Below, piece by piece: positions 15,580-64,000 of a DNA stretch of 64,000 nt. The DNA is taken from IMG/VR virus record IMGVR_UViG_3300009175_000009, positions 48,524-112,523 of that record. One strand, written 5' to 3'. The notes under the pieces were generated by a model. It saw only the letters and a list, made by a program, of their open reading frames with translations. It ran no database searches and was not told the DNA's origin. This DNA comes from a virus. Taxonomy: Duplodnaviria; Heunggongvirae; Uroviricota; Caudoviricetes. Numbering within the stretch: the stretch's first letter is position 1; the number at the start of each line of letters is the position of its first letter. The position numbers and the translations under genes are program-made.

Positions 15580-16140
15580 ATGGCTCAAGGCTGCCGCTGT
15601 CTGCCGGGATGTAGAACCCGGAGTAACTACGTTTGCACGCGGCGGTTCGTGGCTACATCGACGACCGGCGACGAGGTGGCCAGTAAGTATTCCGAGGTGA
15701 AGTGCCTTGCCTGCGGCGGCAAATGGCGAACCGACGCAGTCTACGTCGAGAAGCTGCGAAACTACCGCGAGCGCAAATACCGCAGGATGACCGATGATCA
15801 AATACTACAACTGATCGAGGAAGGTCATCTCAAGGTCAATCCGATAACCGGCGTGGTTCGTAAGCACCGCAAGGTTTGTCACGAGTGGACGAAGCAGTGG
15901 GTCATCCTCAAGCAGGATTTAGACCGTAATGGTTACCCCAGCGTCCGCATCTACTGGAACGGTCACCGCAAGGGTGCTATGGTTCACAGATTAGTTTACA
16001 TGGCCGTTCGCCGAAAACTAATACCGGATGGTTACGATGTAGATCATCGAGATAAGAATAGGGCGAACTGTTCTTATAGGAATCTTAGGCTGCGAACCAT
16101 AGCCGCGAACCGTGGTAGGGTGGACGATGTCCCATTTTGA
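15580..16140 (+). CDS. HNH homing endonuclease
   Basis: HNH motif GYDVDHRDKNRANCSYRNLRL; N-terminal Cys cluster. Confidence 0.8.
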   Translation: MAQGCRCLPGCRTRSNYVCTRRFVATSTTGDEVASKYSEVKCLACGGKWRTDAVYVEKLRNYRERKYRRMTDDQILQLIEEGHLKVNPITGVVRKHRKVCHEWTKQWVILKQDLDRNGYPSVRIYWNGHRKGAMVHRLVYMAVRRKLIPDGYDVDHRDKNRANCSYRNLRLRTIAANRGRVDDVPF

Positions 16141-16144
16141 ACGT

Positions 16145-16618
16145 CTATTCAAGCTGTCGTGTATAGCCCTTGATGATGTTACGAATCGTTGTGGGGTTGA
16201 CGTTAAATCGTATTCCGAGTCGGTAGTACCCAAATTCACCAGTCGCGTAAAGGAGACGAGCTTCAATAACCTGGGGTGTAGTCATCTTAGCGTTATAGTG
16301 GGTGGCTCCGTGCATGTGCCGTCTTTTGGAAACACAGTCGTCTTCGTTATCTTGCTGTGTTCCGAGGAACAGGTGTGTAGGCTCGACGCACGGTGGGTTA
16401 TCACAGTGGTGACAGACATACATACCATCCGGTATTGGGCCGTAAGCGAGTTCATAAGCGACGCGGTGGGCGTACAGTGGCTTCGAGTTCGTGCCACCGG
16501 ATCCTATCATTCCATAGCCACTTCTGGTTCCGCCCATCCAGATCAAACATCCTCCGATTCTTCGGCGTTTGGGCACAGTGTGGAATCTAACATCAAGTGG
16601 TATGGCGTGGCGGGACAT
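16145..16618 (-). CDS. HNH endonuclease (HNH_3 type)
   Basis: CLIWMGG…YVCHHCDNPPCVEPTHLFLGTQQDN; GGAGATAA RBS on minus strand. Confidence 0.8.
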   Translation of the reverse strand: MSRHAIPLDVRFHTVPKRRRIGGCLIWMGGTRSGYGMIGSGGTNSKPLYAHRVAYELAYGPIPDGMYVCHHCDNPPCVEPTHLFLGTQQDNEDDCVSKRRHMHGATHYNAKMTTPQVIEARLLYATGEFGYYRLGIRFNVNPTTIRNIIKGYTRQLE

Positions 16619-16640
16619 AGTTATCTCCTTTGCTTTATTG

Positions 16641-16657
16641 TAGCAAAGCTATTGCTA
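16641..16657. promoter_or_regulatory. palindrome TAGCAAagctaTTGCTA in divergent intergenic region
   Basis: perfect 6-bp arms between divergently oriented genes. Confidence 0.3.
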
Positions 16658-16689
16658 ATACGCAAGAGTTGTTACGGAAAGACGATATC

Positions 16690-17388
16690 ATGAGGCTGAA
16701 TCGACACCAACTCCCGAAGCCGAGATCAGTTGAACGTCAACGTATGATGTTTGATACGCAAGAGATGACGCACGGTATGTGTCGCGTGATGGTGGGCGAT
16801 TTCATGGAGGAAGCAACCGCATGCCTCACCAGCAGCGTGCGACTCCGGACGGACTGCCGCTGCGAGATTTGTCCAGACATCCAGTATTCCCGCCGGCTGT
16901 TCTTCGAGAGCAAGTCGGTCGGCAACACTGACCAGGCGATCATCTATCAGAGCCGCCTGCGCAAGGACGCCGACTTCTGCCTCCGCGGCTACCAGTTATG
17001 CTACTGGTTCTGGCATCACCACTGCCAGGTCTCGAAGGCTGAGAGTAAGACCGAGCTATATCATGAAATTGCCAGGCTAATGCAAGACGTGATTGTGGTT
17101 CCGCTGCGAATGATCTGGAAGGCTTACGGACATCGCGGGCCGAAGCTGCTGAACAACGCACTGTCCCGCAACGGCAAGACCATCGGATGGGGCAGTTTTG
17201 GATATGGTTATGGGTGGAATATCCCACTCCAACAATGGCGTGCGATGGGTGGTACGCGAGTGATCGTACCAAAGCTGAAGGTCTATGATGTTGAGTTTAC
17301 GAATCTTAGGATACAACTGCTTCCAGACGTGCCGAGCGACGTGGTGATGTCGGTCATTCTAAGCGGCGGGTGTAGCCTTTGGCGTTGA
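16690..17388 (+). CDS. hypothetical protein
   Basis: ATG 16690; track start was TTG 16630. Confidence 0.45.
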   Translation: MRLNRHQLPKPRSVERQRMMFDTQEMTHGMCRVMVGDFMEEATACLTSSVRLRTDCRCEICPDIQYSRRLFFESKSVGNTDQAIIYQSRLRKDADFCLRGYQLCYWFWHHHCQVSKAESKTELYHEIARLMQDVIVVPLRMIWKAYGHRGPKLLNNALSRNGKTIGWGSFGYGYGWNIPLQQWRAMGGTRVIVPKLKVYDVEFTNLRIQLLPDVPSDVVMSVILSGGCSLWR

Positions 17389-17838
17389 ATGTTTAGTCTG
17401 TTTGTTCCGAAGAATGATCTTATCCTTGATAGTTTTCAGAGCATGGCAGTTTGGGCACATGAGTTGGTAGAGTTCGGGGTTTTTATAGGCCCTGACCGTG
17501 TTATCACCAGTTCTATGACGTCCGCCGCCGATAGCAACAATATGATCTGCTTGTAATATTTCAGGATGTTTGTTGTACCCACATTTGCAGCAACATCCGC
17601 CGAGCATTTGTAGTACAGCAACCCGTACCTGACGTCGCCACTCGTTTTTCCTTTTTGTGCAGCACGTTTTACATCTATACGAACGGTTGCGTAGTCCCGA
17701 AAATTCGGTGGTCGGTTGAGGAACGCCGCAGAGGTTACACGTGATATCCATAGCAGACACTATACCACGTATCTGCAACGCGTACAACGCCACCGTGTCT
17801 GGACTGGTTGTGTATGACGTACCGTTCCCCGACTTCAA
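17359..17838 (-). CDS. HNH endonuclease
   Basis: Cys4 pairs plus LQADHIVAIGGG…DNTVRAYKNPELYQLMCPNCHALK. Confidence 0.75.
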   Translation of the reverse strand: MKSGNGTSYTTSPDTVALYALQIRGIVSAMDITCNLCGVPQPTTEFSGLRNRSYRCKTCCTKRKNEWRRQVRVAVLQMLGGCCCKCGYNKHPEILQADHIVAIGGGRHRTGDNTVRAYKNPELYQLMCPNCHALKTIKDKIILRNKQTKHSTPKATPAA

Positions 17839-18059
17839 GGTGCGTCTGGCCCGCGAAGTGCCGGGTGATTTAGCAACAACCCTGTGGATGCGATGATGAA
17901 ATGGTTTAGTTTAAGTTGGTGGCTATACCTGTTCGACGGCTGCACGGGTTGGACGAATTTCTGGTGCCGCGTGCGAAATCATCCAGGCGGCGTGGTGTGG
18001 TATAACGTGAACGCCCTGGAGCCTGACATGCGCTGTAATAACTGTGGAGAAGACTTAGG

Positions 18060-18599
18060 ATGATTACCTTACCGAAACCCGGCGATACGGTTCACGTGAT
18101 CGTGGACGGTGAATACATCATGCCCTTCTACGTGTGGGGCGTATCGCAGCAGACCTATGTCGGTGCCGGCAACGAGACGCCGCACGTGCCCGCCGACCGG
18201 CAGGTCGCCTTGTGCCGTAACGAGCGCATCGGCTACAAGCTGATCGAGGTGCCGAAGCTGTCTCTGGAGACCGTAGCAACCAGGAACAGCAAACTGCCGA
18301 AGAAACGGCGGTGCGAGATGTGCAAACGACAGCGGAAGCGGTTAGGAACACATCACATCGATGGCGACAAAGAGAACAACGATCCGTCTAACCGAATGAC
18401 GCTATGCCCGCGATGTCATACTAAGTGGCACTGGCAGCACGGGAAACGAGGAAAGCGGAAAACTAGTGTAGTATGTTTTTGTGGTGATCAGTCCTTTGAA
18501 TTAGGAATGTGTCGGAAGCACTACCAGCGGTTCAAGCGGCACGGTGACCCGATGCTGGTGAAGATACGAAACGGTGGTTTAGTGCGAGCAGATTCGTAA
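18060..18599 (+). CDS. HNH endonuclease
   Basis: GTHHIDGDKENNDPSNRMTLCPRCHTKWH; RBS GGAGAAG. Confidence 0.7.
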   Translation: MITLPKPGDTVHVIVDGEYIMPFYVWGVSQQTYVGAGNETPHVPADRQVALCRNERIGYKLIEVPKLSLETVATRNSKLPKKRRCEMCKRQRKRLGTHHIDGDKENNDPSNRMTLCPRCHTKWHWQHGKRGKRKTSVVCFCGDQSFELGMCRKHYQRFKRHGDPMLVKIRNGGLVRADS

Positions 18600-22478: not shown

Positions 22479-22780
22479 TTGTAACACACACCACCGACCT
22501 GAGATGCATCAGTCCCATCAACGATGACGTTGACTGCTACGAGGTGGACATCACCCTCACCAGAGAAATCATGGTTGAGGAGATTCGCAAGGTGTTGAAG
22601 TTATACACGAGCAAGAAGGCAACGCAGGAGGAGGTTACCGAGAACCTCGCCAGTTACCTGGGATCCAAGGTTACGACGCGTGGGCAGCACAGCGAGTTCC
22701 ACACGGTCTGCACCGTCGATCATTTGCCCGTACCGCCATGCGTAAGGCCGGGCATGGGATTAGGGAGTAACGAAGAATGA
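22475..22780 (+). CDS. hypothetical protein
   Basis: ORF. Confidence 0.4.
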   Translation: MIVTHTTDLRCISPINDDVDCYEVDITLTREIMVEEIRKVLKLYTSKKATQEEVTENLASYLGSKVTTRGQHSEFHTVCTVDHLPVPPCVRPGMGLGSNEE

Positions 22781-23223
22781 CAGGGAAGCTGATCTACCTA
22801 TCGTCGCCGTACACGCACAAGGACGCTGATGTGAGGCGACGGCGGTTTGAGATCGTGACGCACTGCGCATCGATTCTGAAGCGGGCCGGGTGCTTCGTGT
22901 TCGCACCTATCGTGCATGCTCACCCAATTGCTGTGGCCCACGGGCTGCCTCTGGACTGGGAATACTGGAAGCGGTTCGACCACATGATGCTGGAACGTAG
23001 CCAGGCGATGCTGATCACGGAGATCGAGGGATGGCAGGAATCGGTCGGTCTGCGAGAGGAGCGACTCTTCGCTGCGGAACTGGGCCTGCCGATAGGTTAC
23101 CTGCCCGAACCTGAGAACGACTTGCTGGTGACGCATTACGTTCGCAAGGCAGGATTAATCAGCATGGATATGACCGGCGTGGCCTGGGGAGATTCCACAA
23201 CTTACGTCGAGAGGCAAGTATGA
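22777..23223 (+). CDS. nucleoside 2-deoxyribosyltransferase-like protein (DUF4406/YtoQ-like)
   Basis: N-terminal KLIYLSSPYTHKD…D and FAPIVH pattern typical of the NDT superfamily. Confidence 0.45.
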   Translation: MTGKLIYLSSPYTHKDADVRRRRFEIVTHCASILKRAGCFVFAPIVHAHPIAVAHGLPLDWEYWKRFDHMMLERSQAMLITEIEGWQESVGLREERLFAAELGLPIGYLPEPENDLLVTHYVRKAGLISMDMTGVAWGDSTTYVERQV

Positions 23224-28412: not shown

Positions 28413-29627
28413 ATGGAACGCCGAAATATCGAAACCGTACCTACACGACGCCGCATCATCTCGTCCGTGGAGGTTCCCGTCGCGGAAGAACCGACATCCG
28501 ACCAGCGTACCCTCGTCCGTCGCTCGATTGCGACCCCTGCTCGCAGGCATATTGGTGATAGCGGGAACGTGGACGAGAAGCTACTTGTTGCCCCCTATCC
28601 GTACTTCGGCGGAAAAAGCGGTGTCGCTAATGAGATATGGAGTCGCCTGGATCCCAAGACCCTCGACTGCTATATCGAGCCGTGCATGGGATCCGCAGCA
28701 ACGTACCTCGTGCGACCACAGCCGTGGGTGGGCCGTGAAGTCCTCAACGACTACGATGCCCTCCTGGTGAACGCGTGGAGGGCCATCAGCCGTCATCCCG
28801 ACGAGGTGGCTGAGATCTGCAACGGTATCATGCTGGCCGAGATGGAACTGCACGCCATCCACTCGCACCTCACGCGATCCAGGGATCGCATGCGGAAGCT
28901 CGTGGGCGGCAGTACCGACTTCTGTGACGTGAAGCTCGGCGCGTGGTGGCTGTGGGGCATCTGCATGAAGCTGGGCGGTGGGTTCTGTAGCGGCGACGGC
29001 CCGTGGTACGTCATCAACGACGAGCTTGTGTGCCTGGAGAAGGACGACCCGCGACGGGACGGCAACGGCATCACCTGTAGCGTGCCCTGCGTGGGGAACC
29101 GGGGCGTGCTGCGGCAGGAGCTTGACTACCTCAAGTCGTGGATGCGAGCCCTGTCGTACCGCATGCGACAGACATTAGTCCTCAGCGGTGACTGGTCGCG
29201 GGCCGTGACGCCCGCGTTCACGGGAACGGGCAAAATAGGCATCATGTTCGACCCGCCCTACGGTGCTGATGCCAACTTCAACGGCACCCTATACACAAAT
29301 CAGGATGCCGACATCAGCACCAAGATCAAGGAGTGGTGCATCCAGCATACCGACCCCGCGTGGTGCCGAGCGAACAAAGACACGAATATCTACCGCATCG
29401 CGTACTGCGGCTATACACCGGAAGGTGATATCCTTGAGCAGAACGGATGGGCAGTTCACGCGTGGACAGCCGCAGGAGGCTACGGAAACCAGGGTCAGGA
29501 TGGGGCTAACAAGAAGGTAGAGAAGGGCGGGCAGTTTCTTCGCGGGAACGCGGGCCGCGAGCGTGTTTGGTTCAGCCCGGCCTGTGGTAGTGGCAGTGAT
29601 ATTTGGCTTAGATTCGGAAAGAAGTAA
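28413..29627 (+). CDS. DNA N6-adenine methyltransferase (second Dam-like, D12 class)
   Basis: PYPYFGGKS (motif I region) and FDPPYGAD (motif IV). Confidence 0.7.
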   Translation: MERRNIETVPTRRRIISSVEVPVAEEPTSDQRTLVRRSIATPARRHIGDSGNVDEKLLVAPYPYFGGKSGVANEIWSRLDPKTLDCYIEPCMGSAATYLVRPQPWVGREVLNDYDALLVNAWRAISRHPDEVAEICNGIMLAEMELHAIHSHLTRSRDRMRKLVGGSTDFCDVKLGAWWLWGICMKLGGGFCSGDGPWYVINDELVCLEKDDPRRDGNGITCSVPCVGNRGVLRQELDYLKSWMRALSYRMRQTLVLSGDWSRAVTPAFTGTGKIGIMFDPPYGADANFNGTLYTNQDADISTKIKEWCIQHTDPAWCRANKDTNIYRIAYCGYTPEGDILEQNGWAVHAWTAAGGYGNQGQDGANKKVEKGGQFLRGNAGRERVWFSPACGSGSDIWLRFGKK

Positions 29628-37040: not shown

Positions 37041-37598
37041 ATGCCGAGTCACTATATAATATGCCCGCAACGGAACGGTGACATAACCGAAGCCCGTATG
37101 CTAGTGCAGAACTACGGTTTGGTGGTTGGTGAATACGACGTATTCATGCCAACAGCCAATTATGTAGGTGACTGCGTGTATCTGAGCGTGTTGCCATCGA
37201 GTGAAGCCTACCAGAAGATGCGGGAGTGGATCGACCGCCGGCGGCACACGAACAGGCCAGAGTCGGCAATCGCCGCAGCCTGCCCGTCGAACCAGCGTGC
37301 CTGGGTGCTGTACTATCCGCCCGGCAGATCTTATCAGGGTGGCAGGGAAGTCGAAAACTGTGAATTATCGGTTCAAATACTACAGGCCCTGGAAAGCTGC
37401 GACCGCTGGCCGGTGGGTGTAGCCCTTCCTGCCTCCGAGCCTGGTGAAATAGGATGGCGGCTGGAGAGCGTAGGTCCGCCTGTGATTCCGCAGTGGATCG
37501 AAACCAACGGTGGCCAGTTATGGACGCCAGCGATGGAAGACGCACCCAGGCCGGTGCGGCGACGTATTCAAACATTACCCGATAGTGGTGAAATCTAA
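37041..37598 (+). CDS. hypothetical protein; paralog of the 40015 gene; C-terminal …VRRRIQTLPDSGEI tag
   Basis: shared blocks GLVVGEYDV / WVLYYPPG…SVQILQAL with the 40015 product. Confidence 0.5.
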   Translation: MPSHYIICPQRNGDITEARMLVQNYGLVVGEYDVFMPTANYVGDCVYLSVLPSSEAYQKMREWIDRRRHTNRPESAIAAACPSNQRAWVLYYPPGRSYQGGREVENCELSVQILQALESCDRWPVGVALPASEPGEIGWRLESVGPPVIPQWIETNGGQLWTPAMEDAPRPVRRRIQTLPDSGEI

Positions 37599-37611
37599 GG
37601 AGAAATTAAGC

Positions 37612-38622
37612 GTGAGCGACGTGATTGTGGTTACAGGGTCCGGTGGGTTCATCGGCGGATCATTAGTGCGACGACTTAACGAGAAAGGTCATGTTCACAT
37701 CAGGGCTGTGGATAAGAAGCCACTGCCCGACTGGTATCAGGTCAGCGACGGCGTCGAGAACCTGAGTCTTGATGTGAGCATCGAGGAGAACTGCCATCGC
37801 GTATGTGAGGGCGCGACCGCAGTCTACAACCTGGCAGCCGATATGGGTGGCATGGGCTTCATCGAGAGGTTCCGTATCCAGTGCCTGCGAAGCGTGTTGA
37901 TTAATACTCACATGATCGAAGCCGCCTGGCGTGCTGGTTGCCAGAAGTATTTCTACTCATCGTCAGCCTGTGCCTACAACATCAACTTGCAGAAGACTGC
38001 CGAGTGCCTGGCACTGAAGGAGACTGATGCCTACCCCGCGATGGCGGAGCGTGGTTACGGCTGGGAGAAGCTCCTCTCGGAGATGTTCTGTCAGGAGTAT
38101 TGGGCCGAACGCGGCATGAAGACCTTCATCGCCCGCTTCCACAACGTCTACGGCCCGCACGGCACGTGGGACGGTGGCCGTGAGAAGGCACCAGCAGCTA
38201 TCTGCCGCAAGGTGATCGAGGCCAGGGAAACCGGCAAGCACGAGATCACGATATGGGGCGACGGCACGCAGAATCGCAGCTACATGTGGATCGAGGACTG
38301 TCTGGACGGCATCGACCGTATTACGCAATGCAGTGATCTTATCGCGACGCCCATCAACCTCGGATCCAATGAGTCGATCTCTGTCAATGACTTGGTGGAT
38401 ATCGCCGAGGAAATCGGAGGCGTGAAGCTGAAGCGACTGTACGATCTCAGTGCCCCCAAGGGTGTGGCTGGTCGCAACAGCGACAACACGATGATTCAGC
38501 ACTACCTGGGCTGGCAGCCACGGACATCGTTCCGCGTCGGCCTGGCACGAACATTTGCTTGGATAGAAGCTCAGTATCACGACCGCAAGGCCGGCAAACG
38601 CACGGTGCATGACACGATATGA
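37612..38622 (+). CDS. GDP-mannose 3,5-epimerase homolog (NAD-dependent epimerase/dehydratase, SDR family)
   Basis: TGSGGFIGGSL Rossmann; NLAADMGGMGFI, YSSSACAY, RFHNVYGPHGTWDGGREKAPAAICRK, WGDGTQNRSY, GVAGRNSDN — near-identical blocks to plant/bacterial GME; GTG 37612 after AAGGAGAAA. Confidence 0.85.
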   Translation: MSDVIVVTGSGGFIGGSLVRRLNEKGHVHIRAVDKKPLPDWYQVSDGVENLSLDVSIEENCHRVCEGATAVYNLAADMGGMGFIERFRIQCLRSVLINTHMIEAAWRAGCQKYFYSSSACAYNINLQKTAECLALKETDAYPAMAERGYGWEKLLSEMFCQEYWAERGMKTFIARFHNVYGPHGTWDGGREKAPAAICRKVIEARETGKHEITIWGDGTQNRSYMWIEDCLDGIDRITQCSDLIATPINLGSNESISVNDLVDIAEEIGGVKLKRLYDLSAPKGVAGRNSDNTMIQHYLGWQPRTSFRVGLARTFAWIEAQYHDRKAGKRTVHDTI

Positions 38623-41912: not shown

Positions 41913-43340
41913 ATGTTTGCAAAAGTGTTTCTGATAGGATTCATGTTCGTGGCTGCATTGGTGGCTCACAGCTACTGGCACTACGCTGTCGTTCCGGAGG
42001 TGAACGACCAAATGGCTTACAACCAGCTTGATCACAGTCGCTCCCGGCATGAGCAGCAGAACATGCGATTCTGGCAAGTCGCCAAGCAGTACCCAGGCAC
42101 GATCATCTGGACTTCGTTCTCCCTGCTGACCTTGCTGACCTTCATGCCCGAACTGAAGCGCGCCACGAAGGCGGGCAAAACCTTTGCGACCAGTATGTCA
42201 CCAGCGTTGTTGCTGCTATTGCTTGTCGGTGGGTGTCAGTCGCCCTACGATACTCCGGTCTTCGTCGATGTCGGTAATTCCGAGACGGCATTCATGGTGA
42301 AGAAGGAGGACAACAGCAAGCAAACGGCGACGAAGACCACGCAGATGTTCATTCAGCAGACTGCCGAGGGCAAACCCTGGGTGCAGTCGAAGCGCATCCT
42401 TATTCCGTACCGCTGGCAGGACATGGGTCATGGTTGGAACAACGGCAAGTTTATCCCCGACGCTCAGGTTTTCATTGTAGATCGCGTTCCATGTACGCGA
42501 GAGTGGACCGCAGCCCCGCACACAGGAACGTCGTTCAGGGACCAGGCCATTGACGTCGAGTCCAGTGATTCGGTGAACTTCTCCTGCGGCATCTCCATCG
42601 TTGCCCGTATTCTGACTGAGGAAGACGCGGTTAAGTTCTTCTTCAACTATCCGGCGAACAAGGATAGGGTCATCAAGGCGGGCGGCGGATACAAGGATGA
42701 CTACGTCGTTAAGACCGTAGGGCTTGAAGACGTCATGGATACCGAGGTGCGAGCCGTTCTCCAGCGGGTTTTCTCCGACGAGGCGGCCAAGTACACGATG
42801 GATGAAGGTCGCAATAGGAAGACCGAGTTCCTGAAGGCGATGCGAGACGAGGCTCAGAAGTACTTCGTCGAGCGAGGAATTACCATCACAAGCATTGGTA
42901 TGAAGGGTGGTTTGACCTACGCAAATCCTAACATCCAGACATCCATTGACAAGGTCTTCCAGCAGCAGCAGGACAAGAACGTCGCCAAGGCCGAACAGGA
43001 AGCCGCCACGGAGCGTAAGAAGGCTTTGCAGGCCGTGGGCGAGGGCGAGGCAGCCAAGGTGCTGGCCATCAAGCAGGGCGAAGCCAAGGGCATCCAGGCT
43101 GTCGCCGACGCCAAGGCGTATGAGCTACAGAAACTTCAGGAGAACCCGCAGGCGTACCTGATGCTGAAGCAGCTTGAAATCCAGAGCCGCATGCTGGAGA
43201 CCTGGGATGGCCGCATGCCGGTGTACCTAATGAACGGCAGCAGCGGTGCAGGGCCAACCATGCTATTGTCGATGCCCACAGCGGACGTGCCGCCCGCGAA
43301 GGCCAAGGCTGCGGTCAAGACCGCCGAGGCCGTGAAGTAA
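41913..43340 (+). CDS. SPFH/band-7 (flotillin/HflKC-like) membrane protein
   Basis: N-terminal TM, SPFH core, C-terminal EA-rich coiled coil KAEQEAATERKKALQAVGEGEAAKVLAIKQGEAKGIQAVADAKAYELQ. Confidence 0.7.
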   Translation: MFAKVFLIGFMFVAALVAHSYWHYAVVPEVNDQMAYNQLDHSRSRHEQQNMRFWQVAKQYPGTIIWTSFSLLTLLTFMPELKRATKAGKTFATSMSPALLLLLLVGGCQSPYDTPVFVDVGNSETAFMVKKEDNSKQTATKTTQMFIQQTAEGKPWVQSKRILIPYRWQDMGHGWNNGKFIPDAQVFIVDRVPCTREWTAAPHTGTSFRDQAIDVESSDSVNFSCGISIVARILTEEDAVKFFFNYPANKDRVIKAGGGYKDDYVVKTVGLEDVMDTEVRAVLQRVFSDEAAKYTMDEGRNRKTEFLKAMRDEAQKYFVERGITITSIGMKGGLTYANPNIQTSIDKVFQQQQDKNVAKAEQEAATERKKALQAVGEGEAAKVLAIKQGEAKGIQAVADAKAYELQKLQENPQAYLMLKQLEIQSRMLETWDGRMPVYLMNGSSGAGPTMLLSMPTADVPPAKAKAAVKTAEAVK

Positions 43341-48399: not shown

Positions 48400-48599
48400 A
48401 GGTACGCATGCTGACGCTTGAGTTCAATAATGGCCCGCCGCTGACGATGGTGGTTCCAGACGGATCCGTTCGTGATGGAGCCACCGTCACGGGAGTCATT
48501 CTAACCGAGGCCATCGACGCCCCGGACTTCTCCGATGATATGGTGCAGTCTGTGATCGAGAACGGTCGCCCCGTGCTGAAGCCCGTGAGGTCGAGATGA
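48390..48599 (+). CDS. hypothetical small protein
   Basis: ORF. Confidence 0.35.
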   Translation: MQMKVRMLTLEFNNGPPLTMVVPDGSVRDGATVTGVILTEAIDAPDFSDDMVQSVIENGRPVLKPVRSR

Positions 48600-53608: not shown

Positions 53609-53871
53609 TGGAGAACGTTCCAAAACTATCGAAAGACGCTCGAATTCGCAAAACTCGGTATCAAAAGATCGAGGCATATCGTGTTATGCGTCAGGGTCAG
53701 ATCGGCAGGCGGATGTACAGATCACAAGCCATCGATGAACTGCTGGATTCCGCACTAGCGAATATTTCAGTTATTACGGAGACCGCTAGTGCGGACATAC
53801 TTGCACGTATTGATCGTTTGGAACGTGCTGTGTTTCCCGGTGATTTTACGAAAAGGAGTGATGGACAATGA
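53608..53871 (+). CDS. hypothetical protein
   Basis: ORF. Confidence 0.4.
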   Translation: MENVPKLSKDARIRKTRYQKIEAYRVMRQGQIGRRMYRSQAIDELLDSALANISVITETASADILARIDRLERAVFPGDFTKRSDGQ

Positions 53872-54842
53872 GCCGAACCCTGGTACGCAACAAGACGCCC
53901 GAGGATACGAACACTCGCATGTGCCGCCTGCTGCGACGCATGCCGATGATACCTCCCGGCAAGATCGAGGACGTCGAGGTGGTGATCAGTACCATCAAGG
54001 CCGGCGTACCCATCGATCTGGTGTCGATGCGTAACGCGATTCTGATGGGAAAGCGACCAGTCTCGCTGCGGTTCTCCAGTGACGTCATCACGAACGCCCT
54101 GAAGTACGAGGGCGGCACGTGGATGTCCACAGTGCCCTGCGAGCTATGGCAGATGGACGACGCCGTCCAGTATCTGCACGGCAATACCCTGATCGGCGGT
54201 CTGGGCTTGGGAGTTGCTCCCACATACGCGACTTACAATCGCCGGGTCAAGGGCATCACCGTCGTGGAGAACGACCAGCGTATCATCGACTTGGTGTGGC
54301 CGAATCTGTGCCGCATGGCCCTGCGGAAGGAATACCGACGCGTGGTGCGAGCCGACCTGTTCCAGTTCCTGAAGGACTGCCAGCCGGGATCATACGACAG
54401 CGGATTCTTCGATATCTGGCAAGGCACGGGCGAGTTCACGTGGAAGGAGCATGTCGTGCCCCTGCGAAGGCTTGCTCGCGGCAAGGTGCGGGAGGTACAT
54501 TGCTGGCTGGAGGATGAAATGCACGGCCAGCTATACCCGCCCCTGGCGTTCAGTTTGGCCCTGCCTAGCGACACAGGCATTCCGGACTACTATCGGGCCT
54601 TCAGCGACGTGGTGCGGCCACTGCTGCCCGACGTGCCCCGCCTGAGCATCGACGACCTGCGGCCCGGTACGCCAGACGCCGGCCTGTCCCTGATCAAGCA
54701 CCGCGAGGGCCTGCAAACCCGGCTTGACGTGCGATCCTGGGTTGCCCGCTACCTCGATGTGAGCAGCAATGACTGGGAGAGGGTGTTTGGTGAGTCGTGG
54801 GACCGTTGCGTGAAGGTACGAAATAATGATCGAAGCGGGTGA
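53868..54842 (+). CDS. hypothetical protein
   Basis: ORF, 324 aa. Confidence 0.5.
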   Translation: MSRTLVRNKTPEDTNTRMCRLLRRMPMIPPGKIEDVEVVISTIKAGVPIDLVSMRNAILMGKRPVSLRFSSDVITNALKYEGGTWMSTVPCELWQMDDAVQYLHGNTLIGGLGLGVAPTYATYNRRVKGITVVENDQRIIDLVWPNLCRMALRKEYRRVVRADLFQFLKDCQPGSYDSGFFDIWQGTGEFTWKEHVVPLRRLARGKVREVHCWLEDEMHGQLYPPLAFSLALPSDTGIPDYYRAFSDVVRPLLPDVPRLSIDDLRPGTPDAGLSLIKHREGLQTRLDVRSWVARYLDVSSNDWERVFGESWDRCVKVRNNDRSG

Positions 54843-60016: not shown

Positions 60017-60619
60017 ATGATCCGCGAGAACAGTATCGTTCGTGATCGTGCCGGCGACGGTACTATGCTGCGAGTCGAAGGCTATCGCGGAGTCGACTGT
60101 ATGGTATGCTCGTGGCCCGCCTGGTTCCCAGAGAAGAAGGCCGTGTTCATTCGGGAGAATCTCGAAGAAGTGCCGGTTCTGGAGCAACTCGACGAGGCGT
60201 CCCGCCAGCACAAAGACGCGGGCCGCTGGATGTCGTGCGACCTGCTACGCGACGCCCGCAATATCATCGAGCATCTCGTCGAGCCGCCTTTTGTAAGCGA
60301 ACAACAGCCCAAGCCCACGGCCCTGGCTCGCATACACGGCTTTCTAGCGGGCCTGCTGGCCTTCGGTGGGCATAAGCACCAACAGGCCGCCTGCCGGGCC
60401 AAGGGCACGCGATACTACGGCGGCAGCGTGCATAGCGAGGGTAACTACCTCGATATCGAGACCCACAACGGCAAGGTCGTGTCGGCCTGGTTCCGATGCC
60501 TGACCCTGCCCTTCAAGCAGACCGAAGTTGACATCCGGCGAGCCAACGAACAAGCCACGATGTACGAAGGCAGCGTGCCCAGGATTGTGGGCATCGAGTT
60601 TCATGAAGGGAAATCATGA
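60017..60619 (+). CDS. hypothetical protein
   Basis: GGAG RBS. Confidence 0.45.
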   Translation: MIRENSIVRDRAGDGTMLRVEGYRGVDCMVCSWPAWFPEKKAVFIRENLEEVPVLEQLDEASRQHKDAGRWMSCDLLRDARNIIEHLVEPPFVSEQQPKPTALARIHGFLAGLLAFGGHKHQQAACRAKGTRYYGGSVHSEGNYLDIETHNGKVVSAWFRCLTLPFKQTEVDIRRANEQATMYEGSVPRIVGIEFHEGKS

Positions 60620-60909
60620 GGCTGAGAGAACTGAACCCGCGGTGGTGGACCTTCGCCGGCGAGACCGTACTTGTGGGCCTGACGTTCGACTGTCCCTGTT
60701 GCAGGAATATCAGGTTGGCGGTACAGTTTCATCATAAGGGACGCGAAGCCATCGACGACCAGTACATCTTGTGCCATCCGGCACGACAGGATCATACGTG
60801 GACGTTGATTGGCGACGAGGACTTTGACACGATAACCATCGAGCCGAGCATCGACGCATCGAGTGCGGGCCACGCTCATTTTCATATCACGAGAGGCGCA
60901 ATAGTATGA
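60616..60909 (+). CDS. hypothetical protein (CPCC, HAHFHITRG)
   Basis: ORF. Confidence 0.45.
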   Translation: MRLRELNPRWWTFAGETVLVGLTFDCPCCRNIRLAVQFHHKGREAIDDQYILCHPARQDHTWTLIGDEDFDTITIEPSIDASSAGHAHFHITRGAIV

Positions 60910-61469
60910 ACCACGAACTGAATTCTTTCCTGTCCCTGCGGCCTGGTCGCGAGGCCGACCTCAAACTGGCCCAGGGCGACGCTCCCGTAGATGCCGCCGC
61001 GATTCCCGAGTCGCCCGTAGTCGACCTCAAACGCGATCCCCGAAATGATCTGTTCACGGGCGAAGACGGCAAGGAGCATTGGGGCTTTCACATGATGGTG
61101 GACTGCTCCGGCTGCAACAAGAACATCGACGACGGCAAGCAGATCAAGAAGTTCATCAAGGATCTGGTCGCGGCCATCAAGATGACCGCCGTGGGCGAGC
61201 CGTTCCTGTATAACTTCGGCACGGATTCCGATGGTGGCTGGAGTGCGTTACAGCTTATCACAACCAGTAACATCTCCATGCACGGCGACAACCGCATCGG
61301 CAGCATGTACTTCGATATCTTCTCGTGCAAGCCGTATGACCAGTCGGTCGTCCTGAAGATGATCGACGAACGATTCAAGCCCAAGTTCAGGAAAGTTAAC
61401 TTCCTGTATCGGGATGCACCTCACGATGACCTGACAGGAAAGACAAATGAACTCACAGTGGGACGATGA
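60906..61469 (+). CDS. S-adenosylmethionine decarboxylase proenzyme (pyruvoyl-dependent, SpeH/SpeD-like)
   Basis: GFHMMVDCSGC…LITTSNISMHG…DIFSCKP parallels SpeH HLIVDLYGC…ESHISIHTWPE…DVFTCG. Confidence 0.65.
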   Translation: MNHELNSFLSLRPGREADLKLAQGDAPVDAAAIPESPVVDLKRDPRNDLFTGEDGKEHWGFHMMVDCSGCNKNIDDGKQIKKFIKDLVAAIKMTAVGEPFLYNFGTDSDGGWSALQLITTSNISMHGDNRIGSMYFDIFSCKPYDQSVVLKMIDERFKPKFRKVNFLYRDAPHDDLTGKTNELTVGR

Positions 61470-62148
61470 CGGATTATCCCTGACTATCTACAGTGAAGAC
61501 CGCGTCGGGCCGGTCAGGTACAAGTTCTCTGGAATTCTCGAAGAGCGCAAGTCGCCTTTTCAGATCATTAGGGTCATGGATCATGAGGCTCATGGCAAGA
61601 CCCTCATCGTGGGCGACGATGTTATGTCGGCCAACAGTGATACTGAGTATGATCGGGCTATGCTCGACCTGCTGCCCGACATGGATCACATGCGGGTCTT
61701 GATCATGGGCGGAGGCGACGGCAGCCTGGCAGCCGAGCTATGCGACCTGCCCAACGTGGCACGAGTCACATGCTGTGAGATTGATAGCGAGGTTCTCGAC
61801 GTTTGCCGGCGGCACTTTCCCATAAGCCTTAACGGCGAGGCCCACAAGCTGCACGTGAACGTAGGTGACGCGTTCCGATACTTGTACGAGAACGCCGACA
61901 AGTACGACGTTGTTTTTGATGATATGACTGTCGAGCCGACTCATGCATCCGAGGATTACAGGCTCAATCTAGCGCGGGCCTTCCGCGGCAAGTGGGTCAT
62001 ATCACAAACCGGCGAGCACAAGTCGAAGTCTGAAACCAGAATCATCAGGCTTCTCCAGGACGAGGCTACGGCGGAGTTTCACAGGTTCTGCCGCTACTGC
62101 CCATTGTTCGAGACCTTCTGGACGTTCACGAAGTACAGGCTGGCGTAA
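61447..62148 (+). CDS. speE: spermidine synthase / aminopropyltransferase
   Basis: VLIMGGGDGSLAAEL (GGGDG signature), VTCCEIDSEVLDVCRRHFP, DVVFDDMT. Confidence 0.7.
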   Translation: MNSQWDDDGLSLTIYSEDRVGPVRYKFSGILEERKSPFQIIRVMDHEAHGKTLIVGDDVMSANSDTEYDRAMLDLLPDMDHMRVLIMGGGDGSLAAELCDLPNVARVTCCEIDSEVLDVCRRHFPISLNGEAHKLHVNVGDAFRYLYENADKYDVVFDDMTVEPTHASEDYRLNLARAFRGKWVISQTGEHKSKSETRIIRLLQDEATAEFHRFCRYCPLFETFWTFTKYRLA

Positions 62149-62152
62149 TATC

Positions 62153-62401
62153 ATGGATCGTAAACTGACCATAGCCAGCTTGCCCGAAAATCCCGTAAAA
62201 CCCGAGCCGGATCCACAAGCCAATTTGAGGGCCGCTCATCTGGCCGCGAATATCGAGGCCGACACAAGGGCCTTAAAAATGATGGATATTAAAGCCGCAT
62301 CCAGCGAGGCCCAGACCAAGTTGAGAAAGGCAGTGCGAGAATTTCAACGAACCGCTTTCCTGTTGTACGATAGTATGACGAGCTTGAAGGGGCCAAAATG
62401 A
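62153..62401 (+). CDS. hypothetical protein
   Basis: ORF. Confidence 0.4.
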   Translation: MDRKLTIASLPENPVKPEPDPQANLRAAHLAANIEADTRALKMMDIKAASSEAQTKLRKAVREFQRTAFLLYDSMTSLKGPK

Positions 62402-62961
62402 ACAAACAATGGATCGAGGCCCAGAGCCATGAGAAGCATCACGGCCAGAACGCTGATGTTAGTCGCCGAAACTATGAGGTTTTCCAGTATCTCGCCATCA
62501 CAGCCGAGGACGTAGCAGACAGAACGATCCTGGAGATCGGCGGTGGAAACTTTCCGGTATGCGGCAACTTGCCGATGTTTCGCAGAGCCGTGAACGTTGA
62601 TCCGCTGTGGGTCGCGTATCATGACAAGCTGCAACGAGACGACGTCGAGATCATCCCCCTGCCGTTCGAGCAGTACGAGGCACCCTCGATTTTCGATGAA
62701 GCGTGGATCTTCAACGTGCTGCAGCATGTAGTCGATCCCAGAATGATACTAAGGAAGGCGAAGTCATGTGCAAAAGTGCTGCGAGTCTTCGAGCCGATTA
62801 ACTGGCCCACAGACAAGTTGCATTTGCACGTATTAACTGAGGCCATGTTCCACGAGGAATTCCCACAGGCCGAAATCAAGATTTACAAGGGCGGAACAAC
62901 AAGGCATTTTCACGAGAGCGATTGTATTTACTTTTCAACATCACAGGAGCCGAAATCATGA
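62398..62961 (+). CDS. class I SAM-dependent methyltransferase
   Basis: motif I ILEIGGGNF, post-II IFNVLQHVVDP. Confidence 0.6.
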   Translation: MNKQWIEAQSHEKHHGQNADVSRRNYEVFQYLAITAEDVADRTILEIGGGNFPVCGNLPMFRRAVNVDPLWVAYHDKLQRDDVEIIPLPFEQYEAPSIFDEAWIFNVLQHVVDPRMILRKAKSCAKVLRVFEPINWPTDKLHLHVLTEAMFHEEFPQAEIKIYKGGTTRHFHESDCIYFSTSQEPKS

Positions 62962-63149: not shown

Positions 63150-63340
63150 ACGAAGGATGGACGTGCCCGAAGTGTGGAAGGGCCAACGCCCCGTGGGTGC
63201 GGTCGTGTGCATGCGGGCCTACAGTGCAGCCTGGGCTAGGGACGTTTCCTGTTGGCCCGCCTATCCAGGACCCACGTGTGCCCAATAGGGTAACGACTGG
63301 AGACCCGCTGCCTGACCAACAACCCAAGATCATCTGTTAG
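63146..63340 (+). CDS. small zinc-ribbon protein
   Basis: CPKCGRANAPWVRSCACG. Confidence 0.4.
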   Translation: MNEGWTCPKCGRANAPWVRSCACGPTVQPGLGTFPVGPPIQDPRVPNRVTTGDPLPDQQPKIIC

Positions 63341-63772
63341 CCACGAGATCACACACGCACATGGGCACACGACGTAAGACCAACGGTAAGCGTAGACGCA
63401 GCGTGCGTTGCACGATGTGTACGTCATACAGATGGCTGGGCAACTCTAAGGGAAGATTTAAACCCAAGGACGAGCGTGAGACGCGTGACAGGACGCGTCT
63501 TCATGAAACGAACGATGAATGAAGATCATACACACGCGAACAGTAACTGTAATCTAATGGACGTGTGCAACGCAAGACATCCAGTGATCGCAGGAGATCA
63601 CGGTTGCGTCGCGTGATCGAAGACGGTGTACAGGAGTAGCGTAATGAACGCACAGCGACGTAACAAGATCTGTATAGACATGTTGCGTGGTTGTGCGTCG
63701 CGTCACACGTTGATTCAACAACAATATGATAAGGATATCATACCGAAGCAAACGGAAGTCATGGGGGCGGAT

Positions 63773-63855
63773 GTAGACAGTATCTATGTAGACAGTATCT
63801 ATGTAGACAGTATCTATGTAGACAGTATCTATGTAGACAGTATCTATGTAGACAG
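63773..63855. repeat. tandem direct repeat, 15-bp unit GTAGACAGTATCTAT x5.5
   Basis: perfect copies at 63773, 63788, 63803, 63818, 63833 plus partial copy. Confidence 0.9.
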
Positions 63856-64000
63856 GAGACGTGATGCTTCTCATGGACTGGGGGTCACGGGGACTACAGC
63901 TTTGAAAATCGGGTCGGACGCGCCAAACACAGCCGCCACTCGCTTTTCCGACCCGGCAACAGATTCAGGCCCCCGCCCCACATTTAAATCTAGAAGCACC

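Follow-up and report, generated by a model that had tools for sequence, protein, structure and literature searches.

At the downstream end of a 64,000-nucleotide stretch of a tailed-phage genome (Caudoviricetes; positions 48,524 to 112,523 of IMG/VR record IMGVR_UViG_3300009175_000009; hereafter, the window), a run of same-strand genes encodes two predicted enzymes of polyamine synthesis: a SpeD-like pyruvoyl-dependent decarboxylase proenzyme and a truncated aminopropyltransferase, here called short SpeE. These two enzymes probably form an aminopropylation module of a large uncultured phage, with the decarboxylase acting on S-adenosylmethionine (AdoMet). An earlier interpretation made from the letters alone (the sequence-only reading) had described the locus as a trio of genes joined by overlapping start and stop codons. 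However, four consecutive open reading frames (ORFs) lie at these coordinates, not three, all on the plus strand: the decarboxylase gene (60906..61469; 187 aa; PF02675 and phrog_3125), the short SpeE gene (61447..62148; 233 aa; PF01564, AlphaFold2, and Foldseek), a small ORF of conserved position for which Pfam and PHROG predict no function (orf82; 62153..62401; 82 aa), and a gene for a class I AdoMet-dependent methyltransferase (MTase; 62398..62961; 187 aa; motif I, phrog_3603, and AlphaFold2/Foldseek). The described overlap is real for the first two genes, which share 23 nt, with an AGGAAAG Shine-Dalgarno-like motif ahead of the SpeE start, but orf82 separates SpeE from the MTase, lying 4 nt behind the former and sharing an ATGA overlap with the latter. 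Upstream, the stop codon of a 97-aa ORF (orf97; 60616-60909; DUF6527 at 28.3 bits against a cut-off of 23.6, and phrog_34484) forms another ATGA overlap with the SpeD start; no orf97 homolog was detected upstream of the SpeD-SpeE pair in any related locus searched. A promoter and terminator scan of 57.5-64 kb returned nothing above shuffled expectation.

The first ORF matches the AdoMet_dc family (PF02675) at 64.9 bits (cut-off 25) over profile positions 1-106 of 107, as well as phrog_3125, the PHROG for AdoMet decarboxylase (AdoMetDC). Its product combines a class 1b AdoMetDC-fold core with a conserved N-terminal extension of ~55 aa, in which the motif RNDL[FY]xGEDGKEHWGFH is conserved among relatives. 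Aligned to the A. aeolicus AdoMetDC (2III), the catalytic core reads TTS121NISMH126GDNRIGSMYFDIFSC141 (61266..61328, plus strand), with Ser121 (61266-61268) as the predicted pyruvoyl precursor and cleavage site, followed by His126 (61281-61283) and Cys141 (61326-61328). These residues, among them the cleavage serine that the sequence-only reading had singled out for checking, align with the Ser, His, and Cys of the solved class 1b enzyme at identical spacings (5 and 15) and are invariant in the alignment of decarboxylase relatives. In the T. maritima enzyme, S63 is the pyruvoyl precursor, and H68 and C83 have catalytic roles (PMC10407285). Because equivalents of all three are present, identically spaced, and invariant, the window decarboxylase is very probably an active, self-processing pyruvoyl enzyme. 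A strain variant on an otherwise syntenic 32-kb contig (P0139; ENA, sample ERZ1426818) has a decarboxylase called at 196 aa rather than 187, with a longer C terminus.

Of the pyruvoyl-type AdoMetDC layout first claimed for this ORF, the fold holds, whereas the AdoMetDC-specific HxxPE motif is absent: in place of HTWPE, the window protein has H126-G-D-N-R, with neither Pro nor Glu. Its core shares ~50% identity with phage proteins of 116-122 aa, a very abundant family that gave 187 hits when proteins were searched and occupies at least 565 IMG/VR loci; the family consensus is Q-L-I-[TE]-T-S-N-I-x-x-H-F-...-Y-x-D-[IV]-F-S-C-K. Four central residues, Gln, Thr, Phe, and Tyr, are diagnostic for the pyruvoyl L-ornithine decarboxylases (ODCs) known as SpeDC (PMC10407285), and the consensus of the 116-122-aa family holds all four in that order; the tie of this family to validated ODCs (ATV46410, CAB5221556, and others) is drawn from size, source, diagnostic residues, and shared proximity to the protein of phage phiN3. 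When the four positions are mapped onto the window protein through the family consensus, Gln116, Thr120, and Tyr135 are kept, and the position of the Phe, directly after His126, is occupied by Gly127. By these alignments, the window decarboxylase is not a canonical AdoMetDC and belongs in a phage lineage related to SpeDC.

The second ORF matches Spermine_synth (PF01564) at 69.6 bits (cut-off 22.9) and human SpdSyn with an E value of 1.5e-17 (phmmer), so both of the polyamine enzyme families named in the sequence-only reading were recovered above their Pfam cut-offs by profile search. An AlphaFold2 model of the protein, built from a 15-sequence alignment, has a mean predicted local distance difference test (pLDDT) score of 93.6. 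In a Foldseek search with this model, the top 50 PDB matches were all aminopropyltransferases (TM-score 0.72-0.81, E values down to 1e-18), that is, spermidine, spermine, or thermospermine synthases or agmatine aminopropyltransferases. In the model, a 7-stranded Rossmann domain follows an N-terminal beta domain, but the C-terminal helical region, corresponding to ~60 residues of canonical SpeE, is missing. The GGGDG signature reported earlier for this ORF is present at residues 88-92, in agreement with the Pfam, AlphaFold2, and Foldseek results. HMMER alignment to human SpdSyn and MAFFT alignments place the cofactor-binding and catalytic residues at 61708..61923 on the plus strand: G88-G89-G90-D91 (61708-61719), of which D91 is the equivalent of human D104; E111 and D113, in the ribose-binding motif CEID; D141, the equivalent of human D155; and D159 (61921-61923), the equivalent of the catalytic human D173. 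The acidic residue of the GGG(D/E)G motif binds the aminopropyl amine of decarboxylated AdoMet (dcAdoMet), keeps out AdoMet, and separates aminopropyltransferases from methyltransferases. G88, G89, G90, D91, D113, and D159 are invariant in all 15 members of the short-SpeE subfamily, and E111 and D141 are also conserved. The subfamily itself is small. A word-based search of 5.8 billion proteins returned only three relatives, and an exhaustive HMMER search returned ~15 clusters (at 50% identity) of 215-242 aa that align end to end with short SpeE. Its members were seen only on metagenomic contigs, several of them phage-like; scans of 185,579 species genomes, of IMG/VR (with the single protein), and of JGI metagenome contigs confirmed no relative, which, given that these scans were pattern-limited, is weak evidence.

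To what extent the two genes belong together can be judged from other lineages. Divergent lineages in which a SpeD-like gene adjoins a SpeE gene number at least six, and three arrangements of the two genes occur among them. Besides the window phage itself (L006-L008), the pair is found in L003 (SpeE 60% identical to the window SpeE), in L004 and L012-L014 (SpeD 76% and SpeE 57% identical), in L009, a 326-kb contig on which the two genes are convergent, in L015 and L016 (SpeE 43-45% identical, depending on the program), and in L063 (4155-5383), whose SpeE is of a different type. In L063, the SpeD-like protein (173 aa) has an N-terminal extension and the sequence His-Ser-Asp-Asp, and its gene overlaps that of a 250-aa SpeE-like protein with GDGDG in place of GGGDG, for which the sole Pfam match is the N-terminal Spermine_synt_N. 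The order is SpeE-SpeD in L103 (420-1471), a high-GC 1.8-kb contig that also carries an HNH-like ORF. Here, a short SpeE with 35% identity to that of the window (P0146) is followed by a canonical-type SpeD with TSH...HTWPE (GTSHATVHTWPEY...FSC), and this pairing argues that the partner activity recruited by the short-SpeE family is AdoMet decarboxylation. A canonical pair, in which SpeD has ESH...HTWPE, was also present in a giant-virus metagenome-assembled genome (L017). Judged by synteny, the SpeD-like and SpeE genes are a conserved and functionally coupled pair. The window contains only one SpeD homolog, and a single SpeD lies beside SpeE at the related loci too.

The linkage to SpeE is not spread evenly over the decarboxylase family. 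Among 80 IMG/VR relatives, 76 keep His-Phe, and no SpeE lies within the flanks retrieved for these 76 (8 kb at most, shorter at contig ends); the sole SpeE-bearing locus of the 80 is L063, which lacks the Phe. In a neighbor-joining tree, computed without bootstrap, the SpeE-linked decarboxylases and one further protein, P0010, group together in a single clade, with the large His-Phe clade as its sister group and phiN3 more basal; in every protein of the SpeE-linked clade, the catalytic His is followed by Gly or Ser. A SpeE is adjacent in six of the seven lineages of this Phe-less sub-clade, P0010 being the exception. Since all members of the clade but P0010 are SpeE-linked and none of the His-Phe loci is, the loss of the Phe and the linkage to SpeE coincide.

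From these patterns, AdoMet appears moderately favored over ornithine as the substrate of the window decarboxylase, for the following reasons: (i) the ODC-diagnostic Phe is lost precisely where the SpeE linkage appears; (ii) the partner of the short SpeE P0146 is a canonical-type HTWPE SpeD rather than an ODC; (iii) we know of no use for dcAdoMet besides aminopropyl transfer, which would explain an obligate pairing, whereas the great majority of ODC genes in the same family stand unpaired; and (iv) the validated AdoMetDC gp163 of phage phiN3 shows that this activity occurs without HTWPE in the same broad clade, so the motif is not absolute.

Several observations count against the module as we read it, and they concern both enzymes. 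The window decarboxylase lacks the Pro of H-T-W-P-E, which is completely conserved in bona fide AdoMetDCs (PMC10407285), retains three of the four SpeDC-diagnostic residues (Gln116, Thr120, and Tyr135), and has a T-S-N pyruvoyl site like the ODC-type family, whereas validated AdoMetDCs, phiN3 included, have (E/D)-S-H. SpeD homologs were sought within 64 kb, while the whole genome spans 192 kb or more, and a second, canonical SpeD may lie outside the window. The exceptional P0010, of the His-Gly type, is directly followed by a dimethylarginine dimethylaminohydrolase (DDAH)/pentein-like gene instead of SpeE, suggesting that at the base of its clade the substrate was an amino acid. On the SpeE side, E163 of the window protein stands where the human enzyme has D176, at a position that varies across the subfamily; Phe replaces Y241 and Met replaces Q70, and the gatekeeping loop has 5 residues fewer than in canonical enzymes. 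Given these changes in the D176 and Y241 equivalents and in the loop, putrescine as the acceptor is not assured.

Some of the same evidence can be read in favor of a different first enzyme, a pyruvoyl L-ornithine (or L-arginine) decarboxylase that makes putrescine for SpeE to aminopropylate, with the AdoMetDC of the host supplying dcAdoMet. This is possible, although we consider it somewhat unlikely. In its favor, the core is ~50% identical to a phage family that carries the four ODC residues, the Gln, Thr, and Tyr and the T-S-N motif are common to the window enzyme and that family, and five of the five phage homologs of similar size that have been tested are ODCs (PMC9992855). Putrescine is a direct substrate of SpeE too, so the adjacency of the two genes would be equally logical, and P0010 is paired with a guanidino-group-modifying (DDAH-like) enzyme, with which it could form an arginine/ornithine-to-putrescine route. 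The phage that encodes P0010 (L010 743-1156 and 10001-11289; also L011) has T4-type genes (gp59-like, RNase H-like exonuclease, and PhoH) and two SpeD homologs, one of them of the His-Phe type. However, the change from Phe to Gly or Ser falls exactly in the SpeE-linked clade, and the partner of P0146 is of the HTWPE type. In bacteria, the known SpeDC genes cluster with speD plus speE and not with speE alone (PMC10407285), and the putrescine-binding residues of the window SpeE are not conserved.

In the SpeE active site, the alignments show a cofactor half typical of dcAdoMet users beside a remodeled acceptor half. Tyr68 is offset by one position relative to the canonical putrescine-binding residues (the human Y79/Q80 region), and the short-SpeE family has gained Asp58, Tyr68-Asp69, and Asp158 as invariant or almost invariant residues. 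Amine-acceptor specificity cannot be read from sequence (PMC11107197). The remodeled pocket, with its new invariant acidic residues (D58, D69, and D158) and without the D176 and Y241 equivalents, would also be consistent with a larger target, namely, a DNA base, a nucleotide, or a phage protein that receives the aminopropyl group. A distant relative offers some context for this. P0147 (32% identity) is encoded (L019 3318-8023; also L020) amid an IbrA-like 3'-phosphoadenosine-5'-phosphosulfate (PAPS)-reductase/DUF3440 gene, a second PAPS-reductase-like gene, two ParB-like genes (one recognized by a below-cut-off match to Pfam ParB_N and one by a sequence motif), and a cupin gene. Gene sets of the PAPS-reductase, ParB, and cupin type are often linked to nucleic-acid modification, and the P0147 neighborhood may be such a context for an aminopropyltransferase-like enzyme. 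Nevertheless, we consider macromolecule or nucleotide aminopropylation by the window module improbable. The L019 member is distant and has no adjacent SpeD, the window SpeE model superposes on small-molecule aminopropyltransferases over its whole length, and we know of no SpeE-fold enzyme that modifies DNA. No hypermodification gene occurs near the module or among the 78 window ORFs scanned against Pfam and/or PHROGs, a set beyond which lie ~40 small ORFs; in particular, the 78 include no hydroxymethylase, 5-hydroxymethyldeoxyuridine (5-hmdU) kinase, aGPT-pyrophosphorylase, or DpdA/QueC type. The link to DNA hypermodification raised in the sequence-only reading thus finds no support in the window. 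Other polyamine or AdoMet-cycle genes are likewise absent among the scanned ORFs.

In the reading that we favor, an aminopropylation module fed with AdoMet, the reaction would proceed in three steps. First, the proenzyme would cleave itself at Thr120-Ser121, converting Ser121 to the pyruvoyl cofactor with the assistance of His126 and Cys141. Second, the decarboxylase would convert AdoMet, its likelier substrate, to dcAdoMet, as an enzyme descended from the phage SpeDC-related lineage and not from the canonical HTWPE AdoMetDCs. Third, the translationally coupled SpeE, which has the fold and the cofactor residues for this chemistry, would bind dcAdoMet through GGGD91 and E111; Asp159 would deprotonate the amine acceptor, and the aminopropyl group would be transferred with release of methylthioadenosine. 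The default product would be spermidine formed from putrescine, although another amine acceptor is possible given the remodeled pocket. The likely benefit is a polyamine supply that the phage controls during infection, independently of the rate-limiting AdoMetDC of its host.

Downstream of the pair, orf82 and the MTase gene differ in how they are conserved. By tblastn, the ORF immediately behind SpeE is an orf82 homolog in L003 (49% identity) and in L012-L014 (43%), and orf82, which has no match in Pfam or PHROG, may be an accessory factor of the pair. The MTase ORF (62398-62961) has a phrog_3603 match (1.6e-12) and a Pfam Methyltransf_23 match at 19.8 bits, below the cut-off of 27. The class I assignment made earlier for this ORF is nevertheless borne out by motif I (ILEIGGG) and by the fold, since its AlphaFold2 model (pLDDT 79) retrieved the class I methyltransferases CmoB, NodS, and TNMT in Foldseek with probability 1.0 and TM-scores of 0.54-0.68. 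In a tblastn search of all fetched loci, the MTase gene turned up solely on contigs of the window phage itself, with none near the SpeD-SpeE pair in L003, L009, L012-L016, or L063; the ~10-kb flanks in the closest relatives lack it. Only four relatives make up the MTase family, and one of these (P0125; L021 897-4743) belongs to a cluster of NAD-epimerase, unknown, and GT11 glycosyltransferase genes without SpeD or SpeE. The window phage has an NAD-dependent epimerase/dehydratase gene of its own (37510-38622), 24 kb upstream of the MTase gene, and the MTase may belong to sugar chemistry.

The sequence-only reading had treated speD, speE, and the MTase as one cassette, and a pathway using all three products, such as one leading to an N-methylated polyamine, would fit the position of the MTase gene in the same tightly packed same-strand run, with its start overlapping the orf82 stop. 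Several of its top structural matches (NodS, BpumL, TNMT, and NNMT) are amine N-methyltransferases. However, the matches are generic for class I methyltransferases, no other lineage has the gene in the regions flanking the pair, and one of its four relatives lies in the epimerase/GT11 cluster, where no polyamine gene is present. With orf82 intervening as well, the single cassette does not hold up, and we consider such a pathway very improbable; the MTase was rejected as a pathway member on synteny. The tblastn synteny and the context of P0125 point to a conserved unit of the SpeD-like and SpeE genes, with orf82 in closer relatives, to which the MTase gene is a mere neighbor.

A more specific, and in our view doubtful, scenario can be drawn for this unit. 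The decarboxylases with His-Gly or His-Ser would represent an independent case in which AdoMet decarboxylation was regained, or kept, within the SpeDC lineage; together with short SpeE, they would make an aminopropylated product that is absent from the host, either an unusual polyamine or, less likely, a modified nucleic acid or protein, with orf82 as a specificity or regulatory subunit.

The module is carried by a phage of considerable size. The window has a GC content of ~57% and is 92% coding on the plus strand, as a one-strand phage gene array. It contains replication and recombination genes of the T4 kind, namely, those for a DNA polymerase, a sliding clamp, and a clamp loader, as well as a single-stranded DNA-binding protein (PHROG 'single strand DNA binding protein'), a UvsX-like recombinase, and SbcC/SbcD-like nuclease subunits. 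A 192.5-kb metagenomic contig (ena:ERZ27245846:k141_83342) carries the same locus, which puts the phage genome at 192 kb or more. The module and its close relatives come mostly from samples that resemble lake metagenomes. When 58-64 kb was compared by megablast with 50,697 phage records, nothing matched, and the window DNA polymerase is at most 30% identical to polymerases of Vibrio and Edwardsiella phages; by these comparisons, the phage is without a close sequenced relative.

Other features of the window lie apart from the module. No tRNA genes were found in it. Two HNH endonuclease ORFs (15580-16140 and 18060-18599) bracket its lowest-GC stretch (16001-18000; 0.513 versus ~0.58), and this combination suggests homing-endonuclease-type genes inserted within the replication module. 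The window further encodes a Dam-type N6-adenine DNA methyltransferase (PF02086; 9308-10207), a DUF1937 protein that we take to be nucleoside 2-deoxyribosyltransferase-like (22777-23223), a 404-aa protein with a partial match to a DNA-methyltransferase PHROG (28413-29627), an SPFH/Band-7 domain protein of 475 aa (41913-43340), and a 324-aa protein of the PHROG category 'methyltransferase' (53868-54842). Just downstream of the module, at 63771-63855, there is a perfect 15-bp tandem repeat (ATGTAGACAGTATCT) in 5.7 copies, which could be iteron-like or regulatory; the ~0.85 kb around it (about 63150-64000) has no called gene.

Phage-encoded polyamine synthesis is a recently recognized route of host reprogramming, for which one phage speD-speE pair has been characterized. 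Clustered AdoMetDC and SpdSyn genes have been described in one phage and two eukaryotic viruses, and both enzymes were validated for the phage and one of the viruses (PMC9992855); phage speE has also been reported as an auxiliary metabolic gene of the ocean (PMC11360552). The linkage of speD and speE, part of the trio that the sequence-only reading had called unusual, is therefore not new, as a clustered functional pair had already been shown in an uncultured Caudovirales phage (PMC9992855). That freshwater pair (CAB4129969 and a spermidine synthase) resembles the window pair in consisting of adjacent class 1b SpeD and SpeE homologs in a tailed phage and in its presumed purpose, phage-driven spermidine synthesis. 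In contrast to the CAB4129969 pair, which is described as closest to gamma-proteobacterial enzymes, the window proteins fall in divergent clades from metagenomic contigs only. The window SpeE is ~60 aa shorter than its counterpart and has an altered acceptor pocket, and the window SpeD lacks HTWPE and has the additional N-terminal extension of ~55 aa.

The decarboxylase itself stands between two groups of characterized phage enzymes. Five freshwater-phage homologs of the 116-122-aa size class are ODCs, and the Sinorhizobium phage phiN3 protein is a true AdoMetDC (PMC9992855). With the phage SpeDC ODCs (LBP and UCP01-04; PMC9992855, PMC10407285), to whose diagnostic residues the family ~50% identical to its core conforms, the window enzyme shares Q-x-I-T-T-S-N ... 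Y-F-D-I-F-S-C-K, the Ser/His/Cys triad, and a freshwater phage milieu. It differs from them in the Gly that replaces the diagnostic Phe, in its N-terminal extension, and in its obligate adjacency to SpeE. The phiN3 protein, gp163, is the nearest isolated-phage relative of both the window protein and the 116-122-aa family, groups with the ODC-type clade, and, like the window enzyme, lacks HTWPE, yet it decarboxylates AdoMet (PMC9992855). The two are 27% identical; gp163 has D-S-H and the Phe where the window enzyme has T-S-N and Gly, and gp163 has no adjacent SpeE.

Compared with canonical spermidine synthases (human SRM, 2O05; T. maritima, 1INL; E. coli, 3O4F), the window SpeE has the same beta domain and Rossmann fold and equivalents of GGGDG (D104), the ribose-binding Glu (E124), D155, and the catalytic D173. 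It departs from them in the loss of ~60 C-terminal residues, the loop shortened by 5, the replacement of Y241 by Phe and of Q70 by Met, and the variable D176 equivalent. A link between a SpeDC-lineage decarboxylase and SpeE, as in the window, is also known from bacterial speDC-speD-speE clusters and SpeD1-SpeD2 fusions (PMC10407285). However, the bacterial speDC clusters always include a second, bona fide SpeD, whereas the window, within its 64 kb, and the related loci have one. The region of 'Microcystis phage MaAM05' (L001, MW495066.1) in which speH_2 (canonical, ESH...HTWPE), speH_1 (non-canonical, ESH...HSFIDK), speE, and speB stand in a row beside purL and guaD resembles these bacterial two-SpeD clusters; its neighborhood (purL, guaD, and agmatinase) looks cellular, and it was set aside as a phage precedent.

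Against this background, the locus and five to six related lineages define two strictly coupled enzyme clades known only from metagenomic contigs, several of which are phage-like. The pair offers a test case both for the switching of substrate specificity back and forth in the SpeD fold and for the minimum size of a functional aminopropyltransferase. If the product is ordinary spermidine, the pair would simply enlarge an already known class of auxiliary metabolic genes. The kind of module is rare but already known from the systems above; what is new is which two clades take part, how strictly they are coupled, the descent of the decarboxylase from the SpeDC lineage, and a truncated SpeE with a remodeled acceptor site.

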